NCBI GenBank assembly: GCA_041674945.1
Contig: JBAYUT010000001.1
Span: 1-54,342 of the forward strand
Length of the DNA: 54,342 nt
Source of the DNA: Minisyncoccota bacterium
GTDB taxonomy: Bacteria; Patescibacteriota; Minisyncoccia; Phycocordibacterales; Phycocordibacteraceae
Direction of reading: 5' to 3'
Shown: positions 958-40,863 of the stretch, in pieces
Position numbering within the stretch: position 1 is the stretch's first letter
Layout: the number at the start of each line of letters is the position of its first letter
Translations under genes and position numbers: made by a program
The notes under the pieces: model-generated
Database searches by the model: none
The model's input: the letters and a program-made list of their open reading frames with translations, nothing else
Told to the model about the DNA's origin: nothing

Positions 958-1185
958 ATGGAACTTGAGACTATGAAATTCTTGGCGATTGCCATTGTAA
1001 TCACCTTGGGCACCCTCGCTCCTGCGTTCGCAATTGGCAAAATTGGCTCTTCTGCGGTCGACGGTATCGCTCGCAATCCTGAGGCAGCTCCGAAGATTCA
1101 GACCGCAATGATTCTTTCGCTCGCCTTCGCCGAGGCGGTTGCTATCTACGCACTCGTGATTGCGCTCATTCTTAAGTTCGTCTAG
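958..1185 (+). CDS. atpE: F0F1 ATP synthase subunit c
   Basis: 75-aa hairpin proteolipid ([12 protein letters not shown] loop, [11 protein letters not shown] helix 2). The ATG at 958 is preferred over the TTG at 919 of the ORF track. Confidence 0.9.
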
Positions 1186-1200
1186 TTCGAAGTTCCTTGT

Positions 1201-1722
1201 ATGGGTCAGCTCTTCTCTCAGCTCGGCATTGCGCCCGCAGCACTCCTCTGGCAGACACTCAACTTTCTTGTGGTGCTGGTGGTGCTCTATTGGTACGTCT
1301 ACAAACCACTAGCAGTACTGGTGGCCGAGAGGAGCAGAAAGATTGAGCAGGGCCTTGCCGATGCAGCGCGAGCGGCAGGAGAGCTCGCACGCGCAGAGGA
1401 GATGTACCAGCAGCGCATGAGCGACGCCGAGGGCGAGGCCGTGGGCGTCATGCGCAAAGCGGAACAGGACGCACAAACTCAGGCGCAGAGGATAATCACC
1501 AAAGGCGAGGAGCGCGATGCTGCGATGCTCGCGGAGGCACGCACTCTCGCGGAGCGTGTGCGCGAGGAGGAGATGTTGCGCCTGGAAAGCGAGGCGAAGG
1601 ACTTTGTGCAGGCCGTCCTACAAAAGACGGTCGAGCTCGACCCAAAGCATATAGACAACGCCCTCATCGAGCAGGCGGCCGCGATGGTGCGCGCCCATCA
1701 CCACGCCCACAAGACGGTATGA
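1201..1722 (+). CDS. atpF: F0F1 ATP synthase subunit b
   Basis: One N-terminal TM helix followed by a long charged coiled coil. Sits in the operon position of atpF. Confidence 0.85.
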   Translation: MGQLFSQLGIAPAALLWQTLNFLVVLVVLYWYVYKPLAVLVAERSRKIEQGLADAARAAGELARAEEMYQQRMSDAEGEAVGVMRKAEQDAQTQAQRIITKGEERDAAMLAEARTLAERVREEEMLRLESEAKDFVQAVLQKTVELDPKHIDNALIEQAAAMVRAHHHAHKTV

Positions 1723-3634: not shown

Positions 3635-6020
<2,386 letters not shown>

Positions 6021-6283: not shown

Positions 6284-7438
6284 GTGCCAAGCGGACCGCA
6301 GTCTAAGATTTGCAACGATCGAATCGGTATTCACACCAAGGGAAGAGGAGGAGGGGTCAAGGTGGCACTGAGTCTTGTTGAAGAAGTACTGGAACACAAC
6401 CGAGAGCAGTCTGCTCTCTTTTCAAGTCGAGAGGCACGGGACGAGCGAGAGGACTACCGAACCAAGCACTCTACGGAAATTGGGGTGTTGAAGTGCATGG
6501 ACGGGCGAATGAGCCTTGCCGTCTTCACGGAGACACCGCTTGGCATCATTCAGCCTTTCCGCGATCTCGGTGCGCGGTTCGAGTTTGGCTCGCCTCACTT
6601 CGATCATGTGATGAAGCGGTGGGTGTACCGCGCCCGGCGGAAAAACCGTTGCGTCATACCGCTTGTCTGCGACCACTGGTCGCAGGGAGACCGGGGCCGT
6701 TGCTGCAAAGGGCACGGATACGACACAGCAAAGGCCAGGGCGTATGCAAGTGAACTGCGCGACCGCTTTGCGTGGCACTTTGCAGAGCACCACCCCTTCG
6801 TCTATCCGATCCACATCAGGATCGAGACAGACGAGGACGCGCTGACCTTCTACGGTGCGCGGGACGGTAACGACCTCAACCTGTCGCAGACACCCACAAC
6901 GACGCCCGCAAGCGTGATTGACCTGCGTCTACGCGAGATGTACCCAGACATGAGGGAGGAGATGCTACTCGATCTCGTACCACTGGTGATGGGCAACCTT
7001 CGCCATGTGGCAAAGATGCGTGAGCAGCCGCGACGACCAGAGGATATGCAGCACCGTGAGCAGGTGTTTGCCCTCGGCCGCGACTTCGATTGGATGAGGC
7101 GTTCGAACTGGGCCGTCATTGTCGGCCCGTATTCTATGGACATCGCCGCATCGATCAAGACCGGCGCGGAGCTGATTCTTGAGAATTTGAGGGAAGGACG
7201 GATTGCGCCCAGTGAGGGCGTTGTCCTCATGACCTCAGGCATCTACAAGAAGCGTGACCTTACCAGCCAACGGTTCGCCGAGTCACGTTCACGCCGGCTC
7301 GAGCACATTGCAACGTCAATCATTCGCGCCCAGGTGCCCAAGCTCGGACCGTACGTGACGGTACTGCCTGGGGTTACCGACATGAAAACGCGACGGTTCA
7401 CACCCCTCGATGGCGGCGCGTACCGTCTCATCGCATGA
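6284..7438 (+). CDS. hypothetical protein with a beta/CsoSCA-like carbonic anhydrase metal-site pattern
   Basis: 384-aa ORF with a GTG start. Carries Cys71-x-Asp73-x-Arg75 (KCMDGR), then His131 and Cys140/Cys141 (CDHWSQGDRGRCC). Followed by a hairpin plus T-run terminator. Confidence 0.6.
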   Translation: MPSGPQSKICNDRIGIHTKGRGGGVKVALSLVEEVLEHNREQSALFSSREARDEREDYRTKHSTEIGVLKCMDGRMSLAVFTETPLGIIQPFRDLGARFEFGSPHFDHVMKRWVYRARRKNRCVIPLVCDHWSQGDRGRCCKGHGYDTAKARAYASELRDRFAWHFAEHHPFVYPIHIRIETDEDALTFYGARDGNDLNLSQTPTTTPASVIDLRLREMYPDMREEMLLDLVPLVMGNLRHVAKMREQPRRPEDMQHREQVFALGRDFDWMRRSNWAVIVGPYSMDIAASIKTGAELILENLREGRIAPSEGVVLMTSGIYKKRDLTSQRFAESRSRRLEHIATSIIRAQVPKLGPYVTVLPGVTDMKTRRFTPLDGGAYRLIA

Positions 7439-26940: not shown

Positions 26941-27114
26941 CCACGCTTGCTTAGGCTCACAAATGCAAAAGCCGCCTTTCGGCGGTTTGCATTTGTGACC
27001 CAATTAGTCGTAATTGAAGCCACTTATCAGAGAGCTTAATAGCTGGTTTGTATCTGGTCGCTCCCTCGAACAGGAACGCTCCTCCGTGTAGGCCTACTGC
27101 CTTTCGGGATTAGA
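26941..27114. repeat. island repeat family, copy 1
   Basis: Contains the 42-nt hairpin 26957-26998, the conserved short frame 27014-27091 (+), and ends ACTGCCTTTCGGGATTAGA. Homologous to 28411-28576. Confidence 0.85.
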
Positions 27115-28410: not shown

Positions 28411-28576
28411 CCCACGCTTTGCTTAGGGTCACAAATGCAAAAGCCGCCTTTCGGCGGTTTGCATTTGTGACCCCAGTTAGTCGTAATTGGAACCAGCTTA
28501 TCATAGAGCTTAACAGCTGGCTTGTGTTCGGAAGGGATCTAGAAGGCGTCCGCAATACTGCCTTTAGGGATTAGAA
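28411..28576. repeat. island repeat family, copy 2
   Basis: Hairpin 28429-28470 is identical in stem to copy 1. Conserved frame ends at 28574. Ends ACTGCCTTTAGGGATTAGA. Confidence 0.85.
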
Positions 28577-34761: not shown

Positions 34762-34838
34762 TCTAATCATTTGATAACGCTTTTCCCCTTAGGCTCGTGA
34801 GAGTCGGTGCTTTTTATTTATCTTATACAATACACATT

Positions 34839-36194
34839 ATGCAGGTAGGGCGCTGGAATCATCAATCAACAACCGGTTCAGGTTCGTCTCACGGACCATC
34901 GAGGCCATCGCGCGATACGCGTGGCGGCTCGAGCTCTTATTCGTCTCGACCACCCGCACGTGGCGGTAGTAGCTATGGCCGTGGACGCCCCGCACAGGGT
35001 GGCGGATACGGCGGCTCTCGTGGCGGTGGCTACGGCGGTGGACGTGCCCCTTCTCGCGGGCGTGGCTTCGGCGTGTTCGGCGAGGCTGAGCACGAGATCG
35101 CAAAGTTTACCAACAAGTCCGTCGTAACCACCTCAGAGCCGGTTTTCGTGCCTGAGCACAAGTTCGCCGACTTCGACATCAACGCGAACCTCAAGGCGAA
35201 CATTCTTGCCAAGGGGTACGACCTCCCGACACCTATTCAAGACAAGTCTATTCCTCATGCACTTCTCGGCCAAGACGTGGTGGGCCTCGCCGCTACCGGT
35301 ACCGGCAAGACCGCAGCCTTCCTCATCCCGCTCATCGACAAAGTGATGAAGCAGAAAGGGGAGCGCATCTTGATCATGGCACCTACCCGTGAGCTCGCTG
35401 TACAGATAGAGAAGGAGCTCGCCGGCTTCGCCAAAGGCCTCGGGTTCCGCGGTATGGTAGCGGTGGGTGGTGCCAGCATTGGCCCCCAGATCTCACAGCT
35501 GCGTCACGATCCAGCATTCGTTATCGGTACTCCGGGACGCTTGAAGGACCTCATGGAGCGCAAGGCGCTTGTCCTCACTGAGTTTGGCACCGTCGTACTC
35601 GACGAGGCTGACCGCATGCTCGACATGGGCTTTATCGACGACATGAAAGCCATCATGAGCAAGATGCGCGCGGAGCGCCACACCCTCTTCTTCTCGGCGA
35701 CTATGTCACGTGAGATTGAGAAGCTTGTCGGCGACTTCCTCGATAACCCAGTGGTGATCTCGGTCAAGACGACCGACACACCGTCGAGCATCGATCAAGA
35801 CGTTGTGCGCATCGAGCGTGGCCAGGACAAGTTCCAGGTACTGGTGAATCTCTTGCGTGAGCCAGAGTTTAGCCGCGCACTGGTCTTCGGTCGTACTAAG
35901 CACGGCGTAGAGCGGATTGCCAAGGACCTCTCGCGCCTCCATATCCACGCGGAGAGCATCCACGGCAACAAGACCCACGGCGCACGTATCCGCGCACTTG
36001 AGGCCTTCAAAGCAGGGAAGGTGAGCGTGCTCGTGGCGACCGACGTCGCCGCTCGTGGCCTCGACATCCCTGCAGTCTCGCACGTCATCAATTATGACCT
36101 ACCCTCGACCTACGAGGACTACGTGCACCGCATCGGCCGTACCGGCCGTGCCGCACACAAGGGCAAGGCACTGACCTTCGTTCAAGGTCGCTAA
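34839..36194 (+). CDS. DEAD-box ATP-dependent RNA helicase with an N-terminal RGG/GY-rich region
   Basis: AATGTGKT, DEAD, SAT and HRIGRTGRA motifs. Low-complexity Arg/Gly/Ser N-terminus. Confidence 0.92.
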   Translation: MQVGRWNHQSTTGSGSSHGPSRPSRDTRGGSSSYSSRPPARGGSSYGRGRPAQGGGYGGSRGGGYGGGRAPSRGRGFGVFGEAEHEIAKFTNKSVVTTSEPVFVPEHKFADFDINANLKANILAKGYDLPTPIQDKSIPHALLGQDVVGLAATGTGKTAAFLIPLIDKVMKQKGERILIMAPTRELAVQIEKELAGFAKGLGFRGMVAVGGASIGPQISQLRHDPAFVIGTPGRLKDLMERKALVLTEFGTVVLDEADRMLDMGFIDDMKAIMSKMRAERHTLFFSATMSREIEKLVGDFLDNPVVISVKTTDTPSSIDQDVVRIERGQDKFQVLVNLLREPEFSRALVFGRTKHGVERIAKDLSRLHIHAESIHGNKTHGARIRALEAFKAGKVSVLVATDVAARGLDIPAVSHVINYDLPSTYEDYVHRIGRTGRAAHKGKALTFVQGR

Positions 36195-36210
36195 AGATTT
36201 TACAATTAAA

Positions 36211-36237
36211 AGCACAGCGCCCGAAGGGCGCTGTGCT
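36211..36237. terminator. bidirectional terminator between the helicase and the recR region
   Basis: AGCACAGCGCCC-GAA-GGGCGCTGTGCT flanked by AAAA and TTTT. Confidence 0.8.
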
Positions 36238-36238
36238 T

Positions 36239-36327
36239 TTATGCTTCGTTACGATTAGATAGCACGGCGCGCAAGGTCTCTGCATCCGAGTACTCAAGCT
36301 CGCTGCCCGTGGCGAGGCCACGACTAG
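36239..36327 (-). pseudogene. displaced copy of the recR 3' coding end
   Basis: About 83% identical to 37381-37470. Encodes RGLATGSELEYSDAETLRAVLSNRNEA-stop, against ...RAALSNRKEA-stop in recR. Abuts the terminator hairpin. Confidence 0.8.
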
Positions 36328-36332
36328 AGCTT

Positions 36333-37355
36333 CTATTTTGCTGCACGCCAAAATGGAGTTACGTTCGAATACTGCGCGTACGTCTCGTACGTCTCTTCAT
36401 CAGTAATCTCCTTCTCTAGATCCAATTCTTTAGCAAGTCGGATCTCACGGTCGAGCACTTCAGCCGCCTCCGCTCTAAATATAAAATCTGTCTCCTCCGA
36501 TAAATAGTGGAGCGCCTCAACGGGACTTTGAATTGTTGAGGGTAACAGTTCTCGCGCGATTAACGCGTCAACGTACTCCTCAGCCACCGCTTCGCTCTGC
36601 TCAAAAGACCGATTTAAATGTAGTGCGATATGCCAATAATCTATCCCCATCTCTACCGCTCGGTCAGTCTCTTCACTGAGCGCCATTTTATTGTTGCCGT
36701 GGGCACGTGCCGCAGCTACAAACCGCACTGCTTTTGCGAGCAATTTTGGTTTTACATAGAAGGCCTGGCCGCTATATGATTCTCGCTTTTCATAGTCACT
36801 GACGCGCACGACATTCCTCACCGTATCCAGTAGACACTGCTTTGTGCACACGATGTGTCCATCTACGTATAAAACCTCATTCCACGTAAAGTCACGACTC
36901 AAAAAATAATCTTTCTCAAGCGTCTCGACGCCGTACCCAGACGCGAAATCGTCAGGCATGTACGTCTCCGCTAATTTTCGAGACATTTCTGTGTCTTGCT
37001 CATTCTTTCCGACATACACTAAGTCAATATCGCGAGGCGGTTCCGCTTCGATTTTAAGAACTGATCTGAGCACGGCCCTAGCTCCACCACCCTTTACTCC
37101 ATATCCTGCGGGTAAGTCTGGAATACCATTTGGCATAGCATCTACGCCTATATTTAACGTGCCCTCTGGGTTTTCCTTTATCGCAACGTCTAAACGATAG
37201 AAAAGTTTCAACCAACGAGTCAGCAGCTCCTCATTCCAGGAAACTTGTTTAAACGTATGTTCAATGGCATGCACTGTACCTTGCTCTTGATTGAGTGCGT
37301 CTGCGTCAATAGGAATCTTTTCTCCTTTATTTGTCGCCGACGGGAATCGTTCCAT
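36333..37355 (-). CDS. pol-beta-superfamily nucleotidyltransferase-like protein
   Basis: 340 aa. GYGVKGGGARAVLRSVL...PPRDIDLVYVG fits the G[GS]-x(10-20)-DxD NTase head. TGTTATACT lies 8 nt upstream of the ATG and there is no SD. Confidence 0.6.
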   Translation of the reverse strand: MERFPSATNKGEKIPIDADALNQEQGTVHAIEHTFKQVSWNEELLTRWLKLFYRLDVAIKENPEGTLNIGVDAMPNGIPDLPAGYGVKGGGARAVLRSVLKIEAEPPRDIDLVYVGKNEQDTEMSRKLAETYMPDDFASGYGVETLEKDYFLSRDFTWNEVLYVDGHIVCTKQCLLDTVRNVVRVSDYEKRESYSGQAFYVKPKLLAKAVRFVAAARAHGNNKMALSEETDRAVEMGIDYWHIALHLNRSFEQSEAVAEEYVDALIARELLPSTIQSPVEALHYLSEETDFIFRAEAAEVLDREIRLAKELDLEKEITDEETYETYAQYSNVTPFWRAAK

Positions 37356-37380
37356 GAGTACAAAGTATAACAAAAGCGCC

Positions 37381-37983
37381 TCACGCCTCCTTACGGTTGG
37401 AGAGCGCGGCGCGCAGAGTCTCAGCATCCGAGTACTCAAGCTCGCTACCAGTGGCGAGGCCGCGACCAAGCACCGAGGTCTTTACGAGGTCGCGATAGGG
37501 CGCGAGCATAAGGCGTATGTGGTCTGCGGTATGCTCGCCCTCGCTCGTGGCCGAGAGCGCAAGCACGATCTCTTGCAACCCATTTTGGATGCGCCGCTCA
37601 AGTGCAGAGATGAGCTCTTTCTCACGAATACCACCCTTGCCCGTGAGCGTGAGCACGCCACCGAGTACGAAGTAACGACCCTTGTAGGTACCTGCGCGCT
37701 CTATGGCGGAAAGGTCCTGATCTTTCTCGACGAGCATCAGGAGCGAGTCATCACGACGCGCGTCGCCACAGTAGCTACAGACGAGCGCGCTCGAGCCATT
37801 GTAGAAGCGTAGGCAGTCGGGGCACTGGCGAACGTTTTTTCCTAAATCGGCAATAAGCTCAGCGAGCTTGGTGCGCTCGCTCGGCGGTATAGAAAGGAGG
37901 TGAAAGACAAAACGCTTACCCTGGCGAGGCCCAATGCCCGGTAGTCGCGCGAGCGCTTGAGCAAGTTCGTCGATTTTATCCAT
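37381..37983 (-). CDS. recR: recombination protein RecR
   Basis: HhH N-terminus (LARLPGIGPRQGKR), C4 zinc finger (CPDC...CSYC) and a Toprim domain. Confidence 0.95.
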   Translation of the reverse strand: MDKIDELAQALARLPGIGPRQGKRFVFHLLSIPPSERTKLAELIADLGKNVRQCPDCLRFYNGSSALVCSYCGDARRDDSLLMLVEKDQDLSAIERAGTYKGRYFVLGGVLTLTGKGGIREKELISALERRIQNGLQEIVLALSATSEGEHTADHIRLMLAPYRDLVKTSVLGRGLATGSELEYSDAETLRAALSNRKEA

Positions 37984-37991
37984 GCGTGCTT

Positions 37992-39377
37992 TTAAAATTC
38001 TGCCGCGAGGCCACCGTAGGCATTGTCGACCGACTGGAAGCTGGTGCGCTTATCGTCGAAGAAGAGCTCCACCGAGCCGGTGGGGCCGTTGCGGTGCTTC
38101 TCTATGAGTATCTCGGCAATGCCCGTACGGTCGGCCTCCTTAGCCGAATTAGCCTTATCATCGCGATGAATAAACATCACCACGTCGGCGTCCTGCTCGA
38201 TAGAGCCCGAGTCACGAAGGTCTGAGAGGCGTGGCTTCCCACCGCGCTTCTCCACATCACGCGAGAGCTGCGAGAGGGCAATCACCGGCACCTCAAGCTC
38301 ACGAGCGAGATTCTTGAGCGAGCGCGAGATCTCGGTGACCTGCTGCACCATCGAATCAGAGGCCTTGGTGTTGGTGGGCGTCATGAGCTGGAGGTAGTCG
38401 ACAATGATAAGCCCAATGCCGCGTTCACGCTTCAGGCGGCGTGCCACGGCACGCATGGCGAGGATGTTGTTGCCCGGCTTGTCGTCTATGTAGATGGGCG
38501 CCTTCGAGAGCGTCTCGAGCGCGTCGCGGATACGACCGAAGTCTTCCTCCTCCTTCACCTGGCCAGTGCGGAGCTTCCATGAGTTTACGAACGACTCTGC
38601 CGAGAGCATGCGGTCAATGATTTGCTCAGAGCTCATCTCGAGTGAGAAGATACCGACCGGCACGTTGTGACGCACGGCAGCATTGCGCGCTATATCGAGC
38701 GCGAGCGAGGTCTTACCAACCGAAGGACGCGCCGCAAGGATAACAAGGTCGGAGGGATGAAAACCGGAGAGCAGATTGTCGAGAACAGGGAAGCCAGAGG
38801 GGACGCCGCGGATACCGTCTTCACGCTTAGAGAGCGCCTCGATACGATCCCACGCGAGGTGAATCGTGTCGGCAATAGCGACGAACTTGTGCGCGGCCGA
38901 GGCGTTACCAATGGCGTACACACTCTTCTCTGCTTCATCGAGCACCTCCATGGTCTCTCGTGAGTCGTCATAGGCCGACTCACTAATGCCGTAGGCGGCG
39001 TCGATAAGCGCGCGCATGAGGTACTTGCGCGAGACCAGTTCGGCATAGTGCGAGAAGTTGCCGGGCGCTGGTGCTGCGCTCGCGAGCTCTGCCAAATAGC
39101 TGCGGCCACCCGCGCGCTCCAGGAGCCCCTGGTTCTGCAAACGCTCTGAGAGCGTGAGCTGGTCGATAGGCTCGCCCCGCTCAGAGAGTTCGCGCATCGC
39201 GCTGAAGATAATCCGGTGCTTCTCGGCATAAAAGGAGTCCCCGTGAATAAGGTCAGAGACGTCGTGAATAGCATCGGGCTTGAGGAGGAGCGCTCCGAGC
39301 AAGGCCCGCTCAGACTCGAGCGACTGGGGCGGCACTCGAGTGGCAGAGTTCTGAGGAGAGGTTTTCGCGGTAGCCAT
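37992..39377 (-). CDS. dnaB: replicative DNA helicase DnaB
   Basis: PPQSLESERALLGALL N-terminus and Walker A ARPSVGKTSLAL. 461 aa. Confidence 0.96.
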   Translation of the reverse strand: MATAKTSPQNSATRVPPQSLESERALLGALLLKPDAIHDVSDLIHGDSFYAEKHRIIFSAMRELSERGEPIDQLTLSERLQNQGLLERAGGRSYLAELASAAPAPGNFSHYAELVSRKYLMRALIDAAYGISESAYDDSRETMEVLDEAEKSVYAIGNASAAHKFVAIADTIHLAWDRIEALSKREDGIRGVPSGFPVLDNLLSGFHPSDLVILAARPSVGKTSLALDIARNAAVRHNVPVGIFSLEMSSEQIIDRMLSAESFVNSWKLRTGQVKEEEDFGRIRDALETLSKAPIYIDDKPGNNILAMRAVARRLKRERGIGLIIVDYLQLMTPTNTKASDSMVQQVTEISRSLKNLARELEVPVIALSQLSRDVEKRGGKPRLSDLRDSGSIEQDADVVMFIHRDDKANSAKEADRTGIAEILIEKHRNGPTGSVELFFDDKRTSFQSVDNAYGGLAAEF

Positions 39378-39390
39378 TGCTACCAGTGTA

Positions 39391-40863
39391 TCAAAGAGTG
39401 GTCTTGGTCAACACCGCCCCAGAGGGCCCGTCGTCCACACGATATCCCCGTTGCGCTATCTCGCCTCGGAGACGGTCCGCCTCTTCAAAGTCTTTGCCGG
39501 AGCGCGCAGTGTTGCGCTCCCGCAGAAGAGCGCGTACCTCCTCAGGAATCTCGCTCTCCGGGACAGCGCCCGCTCGTGGCGGATTGATCAGAGAGAGCCC
39601 CAGGTGCGCCTCAGCATCCTCAATGAGGCCCCATTTCTCCTCAGGGGCGTAGTCCTCAGACCTAAGCGCTTCCCAGAGGACGCCGAGCGCCTGAGGCGTG
39701 GAGAGGTCATCGCGCAGCAATGCAAGGAAATTGACCCGTGCCTCGGAGGGGTGGCTCACCCGCTTAGACTCCTCTGCGATACGCTGTGCCGTAGCCCAAA
39801 GACGGTCGAGTCCTGCAGCAGCACCAGCAAGCGCCTCCCACGAGAAGGAGAGGGGAGAGCGATAATGCGCCTGGAGGAAGAAGTAACGAAGGGCGAGCGG
39901 ATGGAAGCCTCTCTCAATAAGGTCGGCGAGCACAAAACCGTTACCGAGTGACTTTGAGATCTTCTCGCCGCCTACCGTGAGAAACGCGTTGTGGAGCCAG
40001 TACCGCGCAAAAGGTCGCCCGCTCGCCGCCTCTGACTGCGCGATCTCGTTGTTATGGTGCACCGCGATATGATCCTCGCCGCCGGTGTGTATATCGATCT
40101 CTTGGCCCAACAACGAGCGCACCATGGCAGAACACTCGATATGCCAGCCAGGGAAGCCCATACCCCACGGGCTTTGCCACCCCAGTTTTGTATCTGGCTT
40201 CCATAACACAAAGTCGGCGGGGCTGCGCTTCTCACTGTTGGTCTGAGCGCGCGAACCTTGTACCTGTGCGTCTACGTTAATGCCGCCCAACTTGCCATAG
40301 CCATGGAAACGCGCCGTATCGAAGTAGACACCTTGTTTGGTTCTATACGCATACCCTTTTTGTTCGAGCGTGCGTATGAGCGCTATCTGTTCGGGAATGT
40401 AGTCACTTGCCCGCGGGAAACGAATCGACTCAGTGTCCACATTCAGCGCTTCAAGGTCGCTCATAAAGAGCGCGGCGTACTGCTCAGCAAGCACGCGCAT
40501 ATTAGCCATCGTAAGCTCGAGCCCTTCACGTTTAAGCCCTTTCGTCATCTTGTCCTCACCCTCGTCACCATCGGAAACGAGGTGGCCAAAGTCAGTGATA
40601 TTAATCACGCGGTTCACTCGATACTGCGCACCCGCAAGCACTCGGGCCAACGTATCAGAGAATACATACGACCGGAGGTTACCTATTTGGGCCGGGCCAT
40701 AGACGGTTGGCCCACACGAGTACAACAAGACCACACCTGGCTTCTGCGAAATGAACACCTCGCGCTCGCCCGAGAGCGTATTGCTTAGAAAAACGCGCGC
40801 CGCACGCTCACTTACCGGCGCCGTACGACCAGCGAAAAATCTGTTAATCCACTTCATACGCAA
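39391..40863 (-). CDS. cysS: cysteine--tRNA ligase
   Basis: [15 protein letters not shown] (HIGH region) and KISKSLGN (KMSKS). The start is uncertain (TTG at 40863). Confidence 0.93.

Follow-up and report, generated by a model that had tools for sequence, protein, structure and literature searches.

A single gene between two diverged recR ends in a Kaiserbacteria genome: a candidate recombinase-free insertion with long target duplication

The window analysed here is a stretch of 54,342 nucleotides from a Minisyncoccota bacterium (assembly GCA_041674945.1, contig JBAYUT010000001.1), in which one low-GC gene, named the cargo gene below, stands between the end of an intact recR gene (copy A) and a second, displaced recR end (copy B). 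With a probability of about 0.6 this structure is read as a recombinase-free insertion with long target duplication, by which a foreign promoter and one gene would have entered the last 87 nt of recR. The assembly has 0.67 Mb in 45 contigs and belongs to Kaiserbacteria; the relatives found through RecR are labelled Kaiserbacteria, Paceibacterota or Patescibacteria. Coordinates of the features are collected in Table 1.

The two recR ends

On the minus strand of the window the order was cysS, dnaB, recR, a spacer of 25 nt, an open reading frame (ORF) of 340 codons, 5 nt and copy B. Beyond copy B lay a hairpin with a 16-bp stem, after which a convergent gene for a DEAD-box helicase has its stop at 36194. 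An earlier note on this DNA had described a recurrence of the recR end next to the terminator, with mostly synonymous differences and each copy closed by a stop codon, and this description was reproduced. The last 84 nt of recR (37381-37464) and positions 36239-36322 were identical at 70 of 84 nt when compared codon by codon, stops included. Eleven codon differences were synonymous and two were replacements (A in copy A to V in copy B, and K to N), and the stops were TGA and TAA, respectively. The peptides were RGLATGSELEYSDAETLRAALSNRKEA in copy A and ...RAVLSNRNEA in copy B, each followed by a stop. A repeat search gave an 82-nt gapless direct repeat with 85% identity (36243-36324 versus 37385-37466), and exactly two copies of the recR end existed in the whole 671-kb assembly (E = 1.5e-21, and 8.8e-19 by self-BLAST). 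The duplicated stretch corresponds to the Pfam domain RecR_C (aa 175-198). Copy A fits the consensus RAAL(S/T)NRKE(A/T) of 120 homologues, and the whole RecR of the window shared 64-91% identity with RecR of relatives.

The longest identical core of the repeat had 23 nt (36281-36303 and 37423-37445; 22 of 23 in the codon-aligned comparison). For a difference-free run of this length P was estimated at about 0.1-0.2, with 84 nt compared and 14 differences among them; judged by spacing alone the length carries no significance, and the core was dropped as evidence for an att core.

If one copy had been free to change neutrally, 49-59% of the differences would be non-synonymous, depending on transition and GC-to-AT bias, whereas 2 of 14 were observed. 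By explicit enumeration, the probability of at most 2 non-synonymous differences among 14 was 0.0008-0.008 across mutation spectra. Because of this 11:2 synonymous excess, local duplication followed by neutral decay of one copy is unlikely. The identity between copies A and B (70/84) was no higher than that between copy A and other species (58-70/84); thus the two ends are as far apart as the ends of different species in the genus, and they look like recR ends of two lineages. The proposal of the earlier note that a related lineage supplied a surrogate recR end gains strength from both results. By our reading, most of the divergence would have arisen while both ends sat in working recR genes, and copy B would have been untranslated only briefly since.

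At the site of V in copy B, A was present in 120 of the 120 best RecR homologues, and at the site of N, K was present in 114 of the 120, with R or H in the rest. A recR ending in ...RAVLSNRNEA (codon-degenerate pattern ETLRAVLSNRNEA plus stop) was found neither in 241 million metagenome records nor in 185,579 species genomes, and a relaxed pattern used as control returned 23 recR ends, each of which had A and K at these sites. Since both replacements were absent from every other recR searched, copy B is probably decaying now. Its open frame covered 39 codons only, without indels or nonsense changes, and it is at present a predicted untranslated 3' region (3' UTR) of the cargo gene; a separate expressed gene containing it, which had been named as a sign of another origin, did not appear.

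Content of the insert

The insert had about 1.05-1.1 kb and a single ORF, with junctions at most 10 nt from this ORF. The cargo gene had a GC content of 0.47 and a third-position GC content (GC3) of 0.46, while its neighbours had 0.58-0.60 and 0.65-0.73, so that the lower-GC 340-aa ORF was recognized correctly before. The TG-extended -10 element noted earlier was also present (TG at 37371-37372 and TATACT at 37364-37369, read from the sequence, 8 nt before the cargo ATG). The motif TTTTGTTATACTTT, followed by 6-9 nt and ATGGA, was kept upstream of cargo homologues in four other contigs (L044, L045, L063 and L064). A simple promoter scan in which a -35 box was required did not call this -10 element. 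Homology to the loci of the same four contigs ended just upstream of TTTTGTTATACTTT, where the next bases of the window are the recR stop; thus the imported segment would be essentially a promoter and one ORF.

Neither the insert, nor about 3 kb on either side, nor the 33-41 kb part of the window that was scanned held a recombinase, and the absence of an integrase stated in the earlier note was found again. The recombinase genes of the genome, one Xer-type tyrosine and two serine recombinase genes, were located on other contigs (C20, C9 and C18). ComEC, DprA and RecA were encoded in the genome.

Empty sites in related genomes

Across the genus the order was rmuC, rplU and the DEAD helicase gene, then convergent recR, dnaB and cysS. 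The recR and DEAD genes overlapped by 4 nt in genome G013 and were nearly adjacent in G006 and G001. In three genomes of named species (L089, L086 and L083) the recR stop was followed by the hairpin AAAAGCACCC...GGGTGCTTTT, TTGTAAAATC and the DEAD stop, and this stretch could be aligned base for base with the window from copy B through the hairpin to the end of the DEAD gene. The insert was absent and the flanks were conserved in all of these genomes. In the uninterrupted relatives recR ends at the place that copy B occupies in the window; copy B therefore stands at the original position of the recR end, as had been supposed, and the ancestral order shown by these alignments was dnaB, recR, terminator and the convergent DEAD helicase gene. 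A second recR end was found in none of the 30 relatives searched, each of which had one recR. A duplicated recR end without the cargo gene, which would argue for local duplication, was not found among them either.

Of 25 genomes in the genus, only the one analysed here carried the cargo gene; 16 further relatives from the order lacked it, and across the phylum it turned up in 6 of 401 genomes. It was thus absent from 40 relatives (24 congeners and the 16 further ones).

The slot between recR and the DEAD gene was an insertion hot spot in other lineages (Table 1), and no duplicated recR end was found at any of those insertions. For the closest relatives, a decayed recR end after their HNH gene was considered and rejected, as there was only a weak tblastn match (E 0.03) and no nucleotide similarity. 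Ham1-like genes, one of which occupied the slot in G009, also occurred near cargo homologues in L044 and L047. In the syntenic block shared by contig L056 of a closest relative and window positions 37992-40863, the protein identities were 96% for DnaB, 90.5% for RecR and 64% for CysS, and this unevenness suggests mosaic recombination or very different constraints.

Similar footprints at other loci of the genome

Self-BLAST of the assembly gave about 20 pairs of repeats on the same strand with spacings of 0.8-2.5 kb, some of which were tandem paralogues. Several pairs had the architecture of the recR locus, namely those at ftsH, at htpX, at a xer-type gene, at a gene end on contig C22 and at a tRNA on contig C34, with unrelated cargo each time. 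A dihydroorotate dehydrogenase gene and a 400-aa ORF lay between the ftsH ends, which were 2.5 kb apart, and a hairpin followed the displaced copy. A third htpX end, 97% identical, was found at the start of a contig (C6:1-255) and continued with about 73% identity like the region after the displaced copy; it may be the empty-site allele of a co-assembled strain. The xer gene on C20 was the only Xer-type recombinase gene of the genome. The enclosed genes, all of which were scanned except the ORF on C34, gave no recombinase family match.

Proposed route of insertion and alternative explanations

In the proposed route, incoming DNA from a related Kaiserbacteria lineage would carry the recR 3' end of that lineage as a homology arm, and RecA-type recombination inside the common recR sequence would join it to the chromosome. 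A circularised fragment could enter by one crossover, as in the Campbell model, or the fragment could pair by homology at one end only and be joined illegitimately at the other (homology-facilitated illegitimate recombination, HFIR). The recR gene would be rebuilt with a surrogate end, wholly or partly from the incoming DNA, and the resident end would be pushed 1.14 kb downstream, where it would lose translation and gain two replacements at conserved positions. The cargo gene would be transcribed from its own promoter, with transcription ending at the old recR/DEAD terminator. The empty site, the place of copy B, the signature of selection in the repeats, the foreign composition and patchy occurrence of the cargo gene, the absence of a recombinase and the recurrence at other loci are shown by the data, while the donor, the crossover, the DNA uptake and the enzymology are all steps that we infer; that one arm came from another lineage would follow from the repeats, which are 83-85% identical with nearly all differences synonymous. 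Since cargo homologues were never at recR and the same footprint surrounded unrelated genes elsewhere in the genome, the evidence points to a general recombination route rather than to an element targeting recR. An insertion as such, which the earlier note had proposed, stands; "element" in its wording of a minimal element or relic is probably the wrong word, since unrelated genes share the footprint. The insertion appears to be a known kind of event, of the long-target-duplication pattern, and apparently a common one in this lineage.

Several points weigh against this recombinase-free route. A genome of the same species without the insert was not found, and the nearest RecR was 91% identical, with synonymous sites saturated. 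The arrangement expected of a donor, recR followed directly by a cargo homologue, occurred in 0 of 9 contexts. Competence of the organism is assumed from its gene content only. When the left, core and right parts of the copies were compared with recR ends of 16 and 23 relatives, similarity did not discriminate the native copy. GC3 in the distal 11 codons was 5/11 in copy B and 10/11 in copy A, against 0.65 for the host and 0.46 for the cargo gene, and 11 codons are too few for a decision. The sequences by themselves do not tell the foreign copy from the native one, since after one crossover both could be chimeric. The codon choices GAG TAC TCG GAT in the core, common to A and B, were absent from 16 relatives; this would suit a duplication made in situ. 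The 23-nt identical core could be the att core of a site-specific system, and together with the surrogate-end architecture it would suit a site-specific event.

Such an event would have left the relic of an integrative element, of the kind of e14 or phage 21 at icd or of a tRNA island. An attP carrying the surrogate recR end would have recombined with attB in recR, and the integrase would have been lost later or supplied in trans. This origin is a serious rival, although less likely. By the incoming copy recR keeps its frame (200 aa, the C-terminus matching the consensus), the genome encodes serine recombinases on other contigs, a tRNA 3' end is duplicated 1.57 kb apart on C34, and in relatives the recR slot holds transposases or an HNH nuclease, all of which would fit; but the recombinase is missing from the insert and from about 3 kb around it, and the insert consists of exactly one promoter and one ORF. 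The cargo homologues were never at recR in nine contexts and no other genome had a second recR end. Copies A and B are homologous over about 87 nt and differ to the left as well as to the right of the core, and the same footprint encloses non-mobile cargo at ftsH, htpX and xer. A target duplication in situ, for instance by filling in of a staggered break, would start from identical copies, with B then changing neutrally and A synonymously. Besides the core codons, the two unique replacements of copy B and its distance from relatives, on average about 2.7 nt larger than that of A, would agree with this, yet it is strongly disfavoured by the rarity of non-synonymous differences reported above, and the ftsH pair behaves alike (13 synonymous and 4 conservative differences). 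Copy B also lacks indels and nonsense changes, and the cargo gene is low in GC and unameliorated, yet a repeat divergence of about 17% would imply great age.

The synonymous excess could also be explained if copy B were expressed and under selection, either as a C-terminal extension of the cargo protein through a +1 shift at AAA-TAG-A or as a GTG-started mini-ORF of 36 codons. The frame of copy B is indeed +1 relative to the cargo gene and open from its last sense codon (AAA TAG A read as AAT AGA ..., 36325-36340). Against this, both replacements fall at RecR positions that are invariant or nearly so, a recognisable shift-stimulating signal was absent, cargo homologues end without a RecR_C tail, and this frame relation is absent from the other displaced ends of the genome. 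Selection on copy B is very hard to credit, and the +1 relation is probably a coincidence. An assembly artefact, in which variant recR ends of two strains were joined one after the other in this metagenome-assembled genome (MAG), is barely credible as well. The MAG has 45 contigs with many contig-end overlaps of 120-123 nt, and one contig end (C6:1-121) carries a third, variant htpX end; but the longest identical stretch of the recR repeat is 23 nt, far shorter than the assembler word that overlaps of 123 nt suggest. Past the core, copy B continues for 21 nt up to its junction with the cargo stop, which is unique, so a recR fragment follows the cargo gene on a real molecule in any case.

A wider scenario can tentatively be offered, for which we claim rather less than even odds. 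In these ultra-small and probably competent bacteria, conserved 3' ends of housekeeping genes and tRNAs would serve as portable homology arms: a cassette leaves with a stub of the gene before it, recombines with the copy of another lineage, rebuilds the gene and strands the old end, and recR would be one of at least five such footprints (recR, ftsH, htpX, xer and tRNA). If true, this would be a major recombinase-free route of gene gain in Patescibacteria. A streamlined genome of the Candidate Phyla Radiation, with few mobile-element genes, could gain single accessory genes in the ends of essential genes without gene loss, and displaced gene ends would be datable scars, marking a former gene end and giving a rough insertion age. 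The recurrence at several loci suggests a routine process in the lineage; if so, it would help to explain the patchy accessory genes of Patescibacteria.

Comparison with known systems

Recombinase-free insertions with flanking duplications longer than 30 bp have been described, mostly in naturally competent species, and the group of Kobayashi gave this pattern the name insertion with long target duplication (PMC2853133; Furuta, Abe and Kobayashi 2010). In that screen the insert was absent from a related genome, had repeats of more than 30 bp to a single-copy target, lacked mobile-element genes and was below 20 kb; a restriction-modification (R-M) cargo was also required, as a criterion of the screen and not of the mechanism (PMC2853133). 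The window insert is likewise small, low in GC, absent at the site in related genomes and without integrase or transposase, and its repeats exceed 30 bp and align with a single-copy target. In the described cases the target often overlaps a gene 3' end, and the hosts have DNA-uptake genes, as here. Unlike the window, those cases carry R-M genes and near-identical repeats (e.g. 44/46 and 417/423), while the cargo here is nucleotidyltransferase-like and its repeats are 83-85% identical. Insertion with long target duplication is reportedly also treated by Nobusato and co-workers in 2000.

Prophage e14 and phage 21 in the icd gene of E. coli, and the islands at tRNA and tmRNA genes, encode an integrase, use the same att site and bring a surrogate 3' end. 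The window resembles them in that a housekeeping gene is interrupted within its 3' end, a replacement end with synonymous divergence would be supplied by the incoming DNA, and the resident end is left downstream. Its insert, however, lacks a recombinase and holds one gene only, whose homologues lie at unrelated sites. Mobile ORFs with a carboxy-terminal duplication are known from fungal mitochondrial genes (e.g. atp6 of Allomyces), the inserted ORF being a homing endonuclease. As in these, the host 3' end would be replaced by a foreign in-frame copy and the displaced end decays downstream; in contrast, the cargo of the window is not a nuclease, and sister lineages have an HNH gene in the same slot without duplication.

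Integration by one-sided homology (HFIR) is documented in competent bacteria, experimentally in a few species (PMC3240628). HFIR resembles the window in having one homologous anchor and one illegitimate join without mobile-element enzymes, and an illegitimate join located 87 nt ahead of the recR stop would produce exactly the structure of the window. Duplication of the anchor is not the usual outcome, and HFIR is not known from Patescibacteria.

Cargo protein and its family

Scans of the cargo protein against Pfam, NCBIfam, PADLOC and PHROGs gave nothing usable and no R-M or defence match, and PF01743 did not match the window protein at E <= 0.1. PF01743 was the only Pfam family matched by more than one member of the cargo family, weakly and in 2 of 53 sequences (best E 0.011). 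Sequence searches of the PDB with profiles of 14 and 53 sequences gave no match. A word-indexed search found 13 homologues, and an exhaustive profile search found 563 cluster representatives, 261 of them below 1e-30. The family consensus was LPxGYxYKGGAAR...PRDIDIV...YMPDD...TRDFTINEVL...KQCLLDTxRxIIR...KLLAKALRF, and the residues A92, R93, R108, D109, D111, Y150, R154, D155, N159, D177 and R184 were invariant in 53 sequences.

An AlphaFold2 model built from 53 sequences had a predicted local distance difference test (pLDDT) value of 85.5 and a predicted template modelling (pTM) score of 0.79. The top six Foldseek matches of this model (6qy6, 6q52, 4wc2_A, 3h3a_B, 3aqm_A and 3h39_B; E 6.6e-6 to 2e-4, prob 1.00, with TM-scores of only 0.32-0.36) all belonged to class II tRNA nucleotidyltransferases or to poly(A) polymerase, and the seventh was the head domain of a CCA enzyme. 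A model from 14 sequences (pLDDT 68) gave only noise in Foldseek and was not used. The genome keeps a canonical CCA-adding enzyme of 487 aa (contig C20). In hhalign (E 2e-4 to 4e-4, probability 36-46%) the cargo aligned with it, RDFTWNE with RRDFTINA and KLLAKAVRFVA with LRMLRAVRFVA. From the model, the cargo protein is predicted to be a member of the class II (CCA / poly(A) polymerase) branch of nucleotidyltransferases, so the pol-beta-type head proposed earlier held and was narrowed to this branch.

The likeness to class II tRNA nucleotidyltransferases (CCA-, A- and CC-adding enzymes and poly(A) polymerase; PF01743) includes the head and neck fold, the motif GGxxR...DxD (G89, G90 and R93; D109 and D111), the motif RDFTxNE (R154, D155 and N159) and an (L/K)AxRF helix, which lines up with motif D in the CCA enzyme of the same genome. 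The first two motifs we take to be motif A (GGxVRD...DxD) and motif B (RRDFTINA). In CCA-adding enzymes EDxxR is the nucleotide-templating motif D, and it was not present in the cargo, where the segment VKPKLLAKAVRF was aligned against NEDALRMLRAVRF. The cargo also differs from these enzymes by its length of 340 aa, by the absence of an HD domain and of a full body or tail, by KPKLLAK in place of EDxxR, and by having no PF01743 match at Pfam thresholds. It is not filed as a CCA-adding enzyme because it is short, has no HD domain and has KPKLL in place of EDxxR. By analogy with the class II enzymes, the cargo protein would most likely transfer nucleotides to an RNA 3' end, tRNA-like. With its 563 cluster representatives the family would form a sizeable uncharacterised branch of the superfamily of CCA-adding enzymes and poly(A) polymerases, missed by current family libraries.

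Nine contigs with cargo homologues had an informative context, and recR was near the homologue in none of them. In five of the nine a tRNA-Ser gene was located 60-420 nt upstream of the cargo homologue (Table 1). ARAGORN assigned four different anticodons to these tRNA-Ser genes (gct, gga, tga and an odd 'act'), and an extra stub resembling a tRNA 3' end stood directly before the cargo homologue in L044, L045 and L064. The tRNA-Ser link was not present at more distant cargo homologues. The proximity could reflect a functional link, or the use of tRNA ends as insertion sites or homology arms. Because homologues often sit just after tRNA-Ser genes, the family may be an undescribed short tRNA-acting nucleotidyltransferase. 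In contig L048 a cargo homologue with 68% identity was enclosed by 57-nt direct repeats with 96% identity (~1472-1523 and ~2562-2618). This repeat comprises a terminator hairpin and a TTGTTATA -10 box, and it makes a second, independent repeat-flanked copy of the cargo family.

Features of the locus

Table 1. Positions of the features at the recR locus, of similar repeat pairs in the same genome and of the contexts in related genomes
Feature	Position	Strand	Basis or remark
recR, intact, 200 aa (HhH, Zn ribbon, Toprim, RecR_C)	37381..37983	-	ORF; Pfam Toprim_4, RecR_HhH, RecR_C
Copy A, functional recR 3' end, 27 last codons and TGA	37381..37467	-	repeat search
Spacer from recR stop to cargo ATG	37356..37380	-	contains the TG-extended -10
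Cargo gene, 340-aa divergent class II nucleotidyltransferase-like protein	36333..37355	-	ORF, family alignment, AlphaFold2 model and Foldseek
Copy B, displaced recR 3' end, 27 codons and TAA, ancestral position	36239..36328	-	repeat search, empty-site alignment
Predicted bidirectional intrinsic terminator	36207..36241	.	16-bp perfect inverted repeat
Convergent gene of a DEAD-box RNA helicase, next to the recR end in the ancestral order	34797..36194	+	Pfam DEAD and Helicase_C; recR synteny across the genus
ftsH end (last ~40 codons)	C26 8223-8336 vs 5679-5792		86% identity; 13 synonymous, 4 conservative replacements
htpX end, 140 nt	C41 1995-2134 vs 1122-1261		87% identity, 873 nt apart; 196-aa low-GC membrane ORF between
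xer-type recombinase gene end	C20 8086-8156 vs 6654-6723		93% identity; TrmB-family gene and small ORF between
39-nt gene end	C22:503-1641		90% identity; patatin-like gene between
tRNA 3' end and 35 nt	C34:1097-2725		98% identity; copies 1.57 kb apart
recR/DEAD slot in G017	L037:2167-4142		two rve-type transposase genes
recR/DEAD slot in G014 and G005			two small ORFs
recR/DEAD slot in G009	L042:2282-3749		IS200/RAYT-like ORF and Ham1-like ORF (by eye)
recR slot in closest relatives (RecR 91% identical)	L056:5692-6102, L057, L060:1234-1644		136-aa HNH endonuclease gene directly after recR, same orientation
tRNA-Ser contexts of cargo homologues	L044:4654-5003, L045:2608-2943, L053:34-210, L055:11-160, L064:1531-2043		ARAGORN

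The terminator hairpin had a folding energy of -29.7 kcal/mol (z = -7.5), and its stem takes in the stop codon of copy B. The terminator is predicted to be common to the transcription unit of the cargo gene and recR and to the convergent DEAD-box helicase gene. Rfam scans of the 33-41 kb part of the window and of the loci of cargo homologues gave tRNAs only. Elsewhere in the window, a 110-nt direct repeat with 91% identity (26941-27051 and 28412-28525), which contains a terminator hairpin, was observed around a 378-aa orphan ORF.

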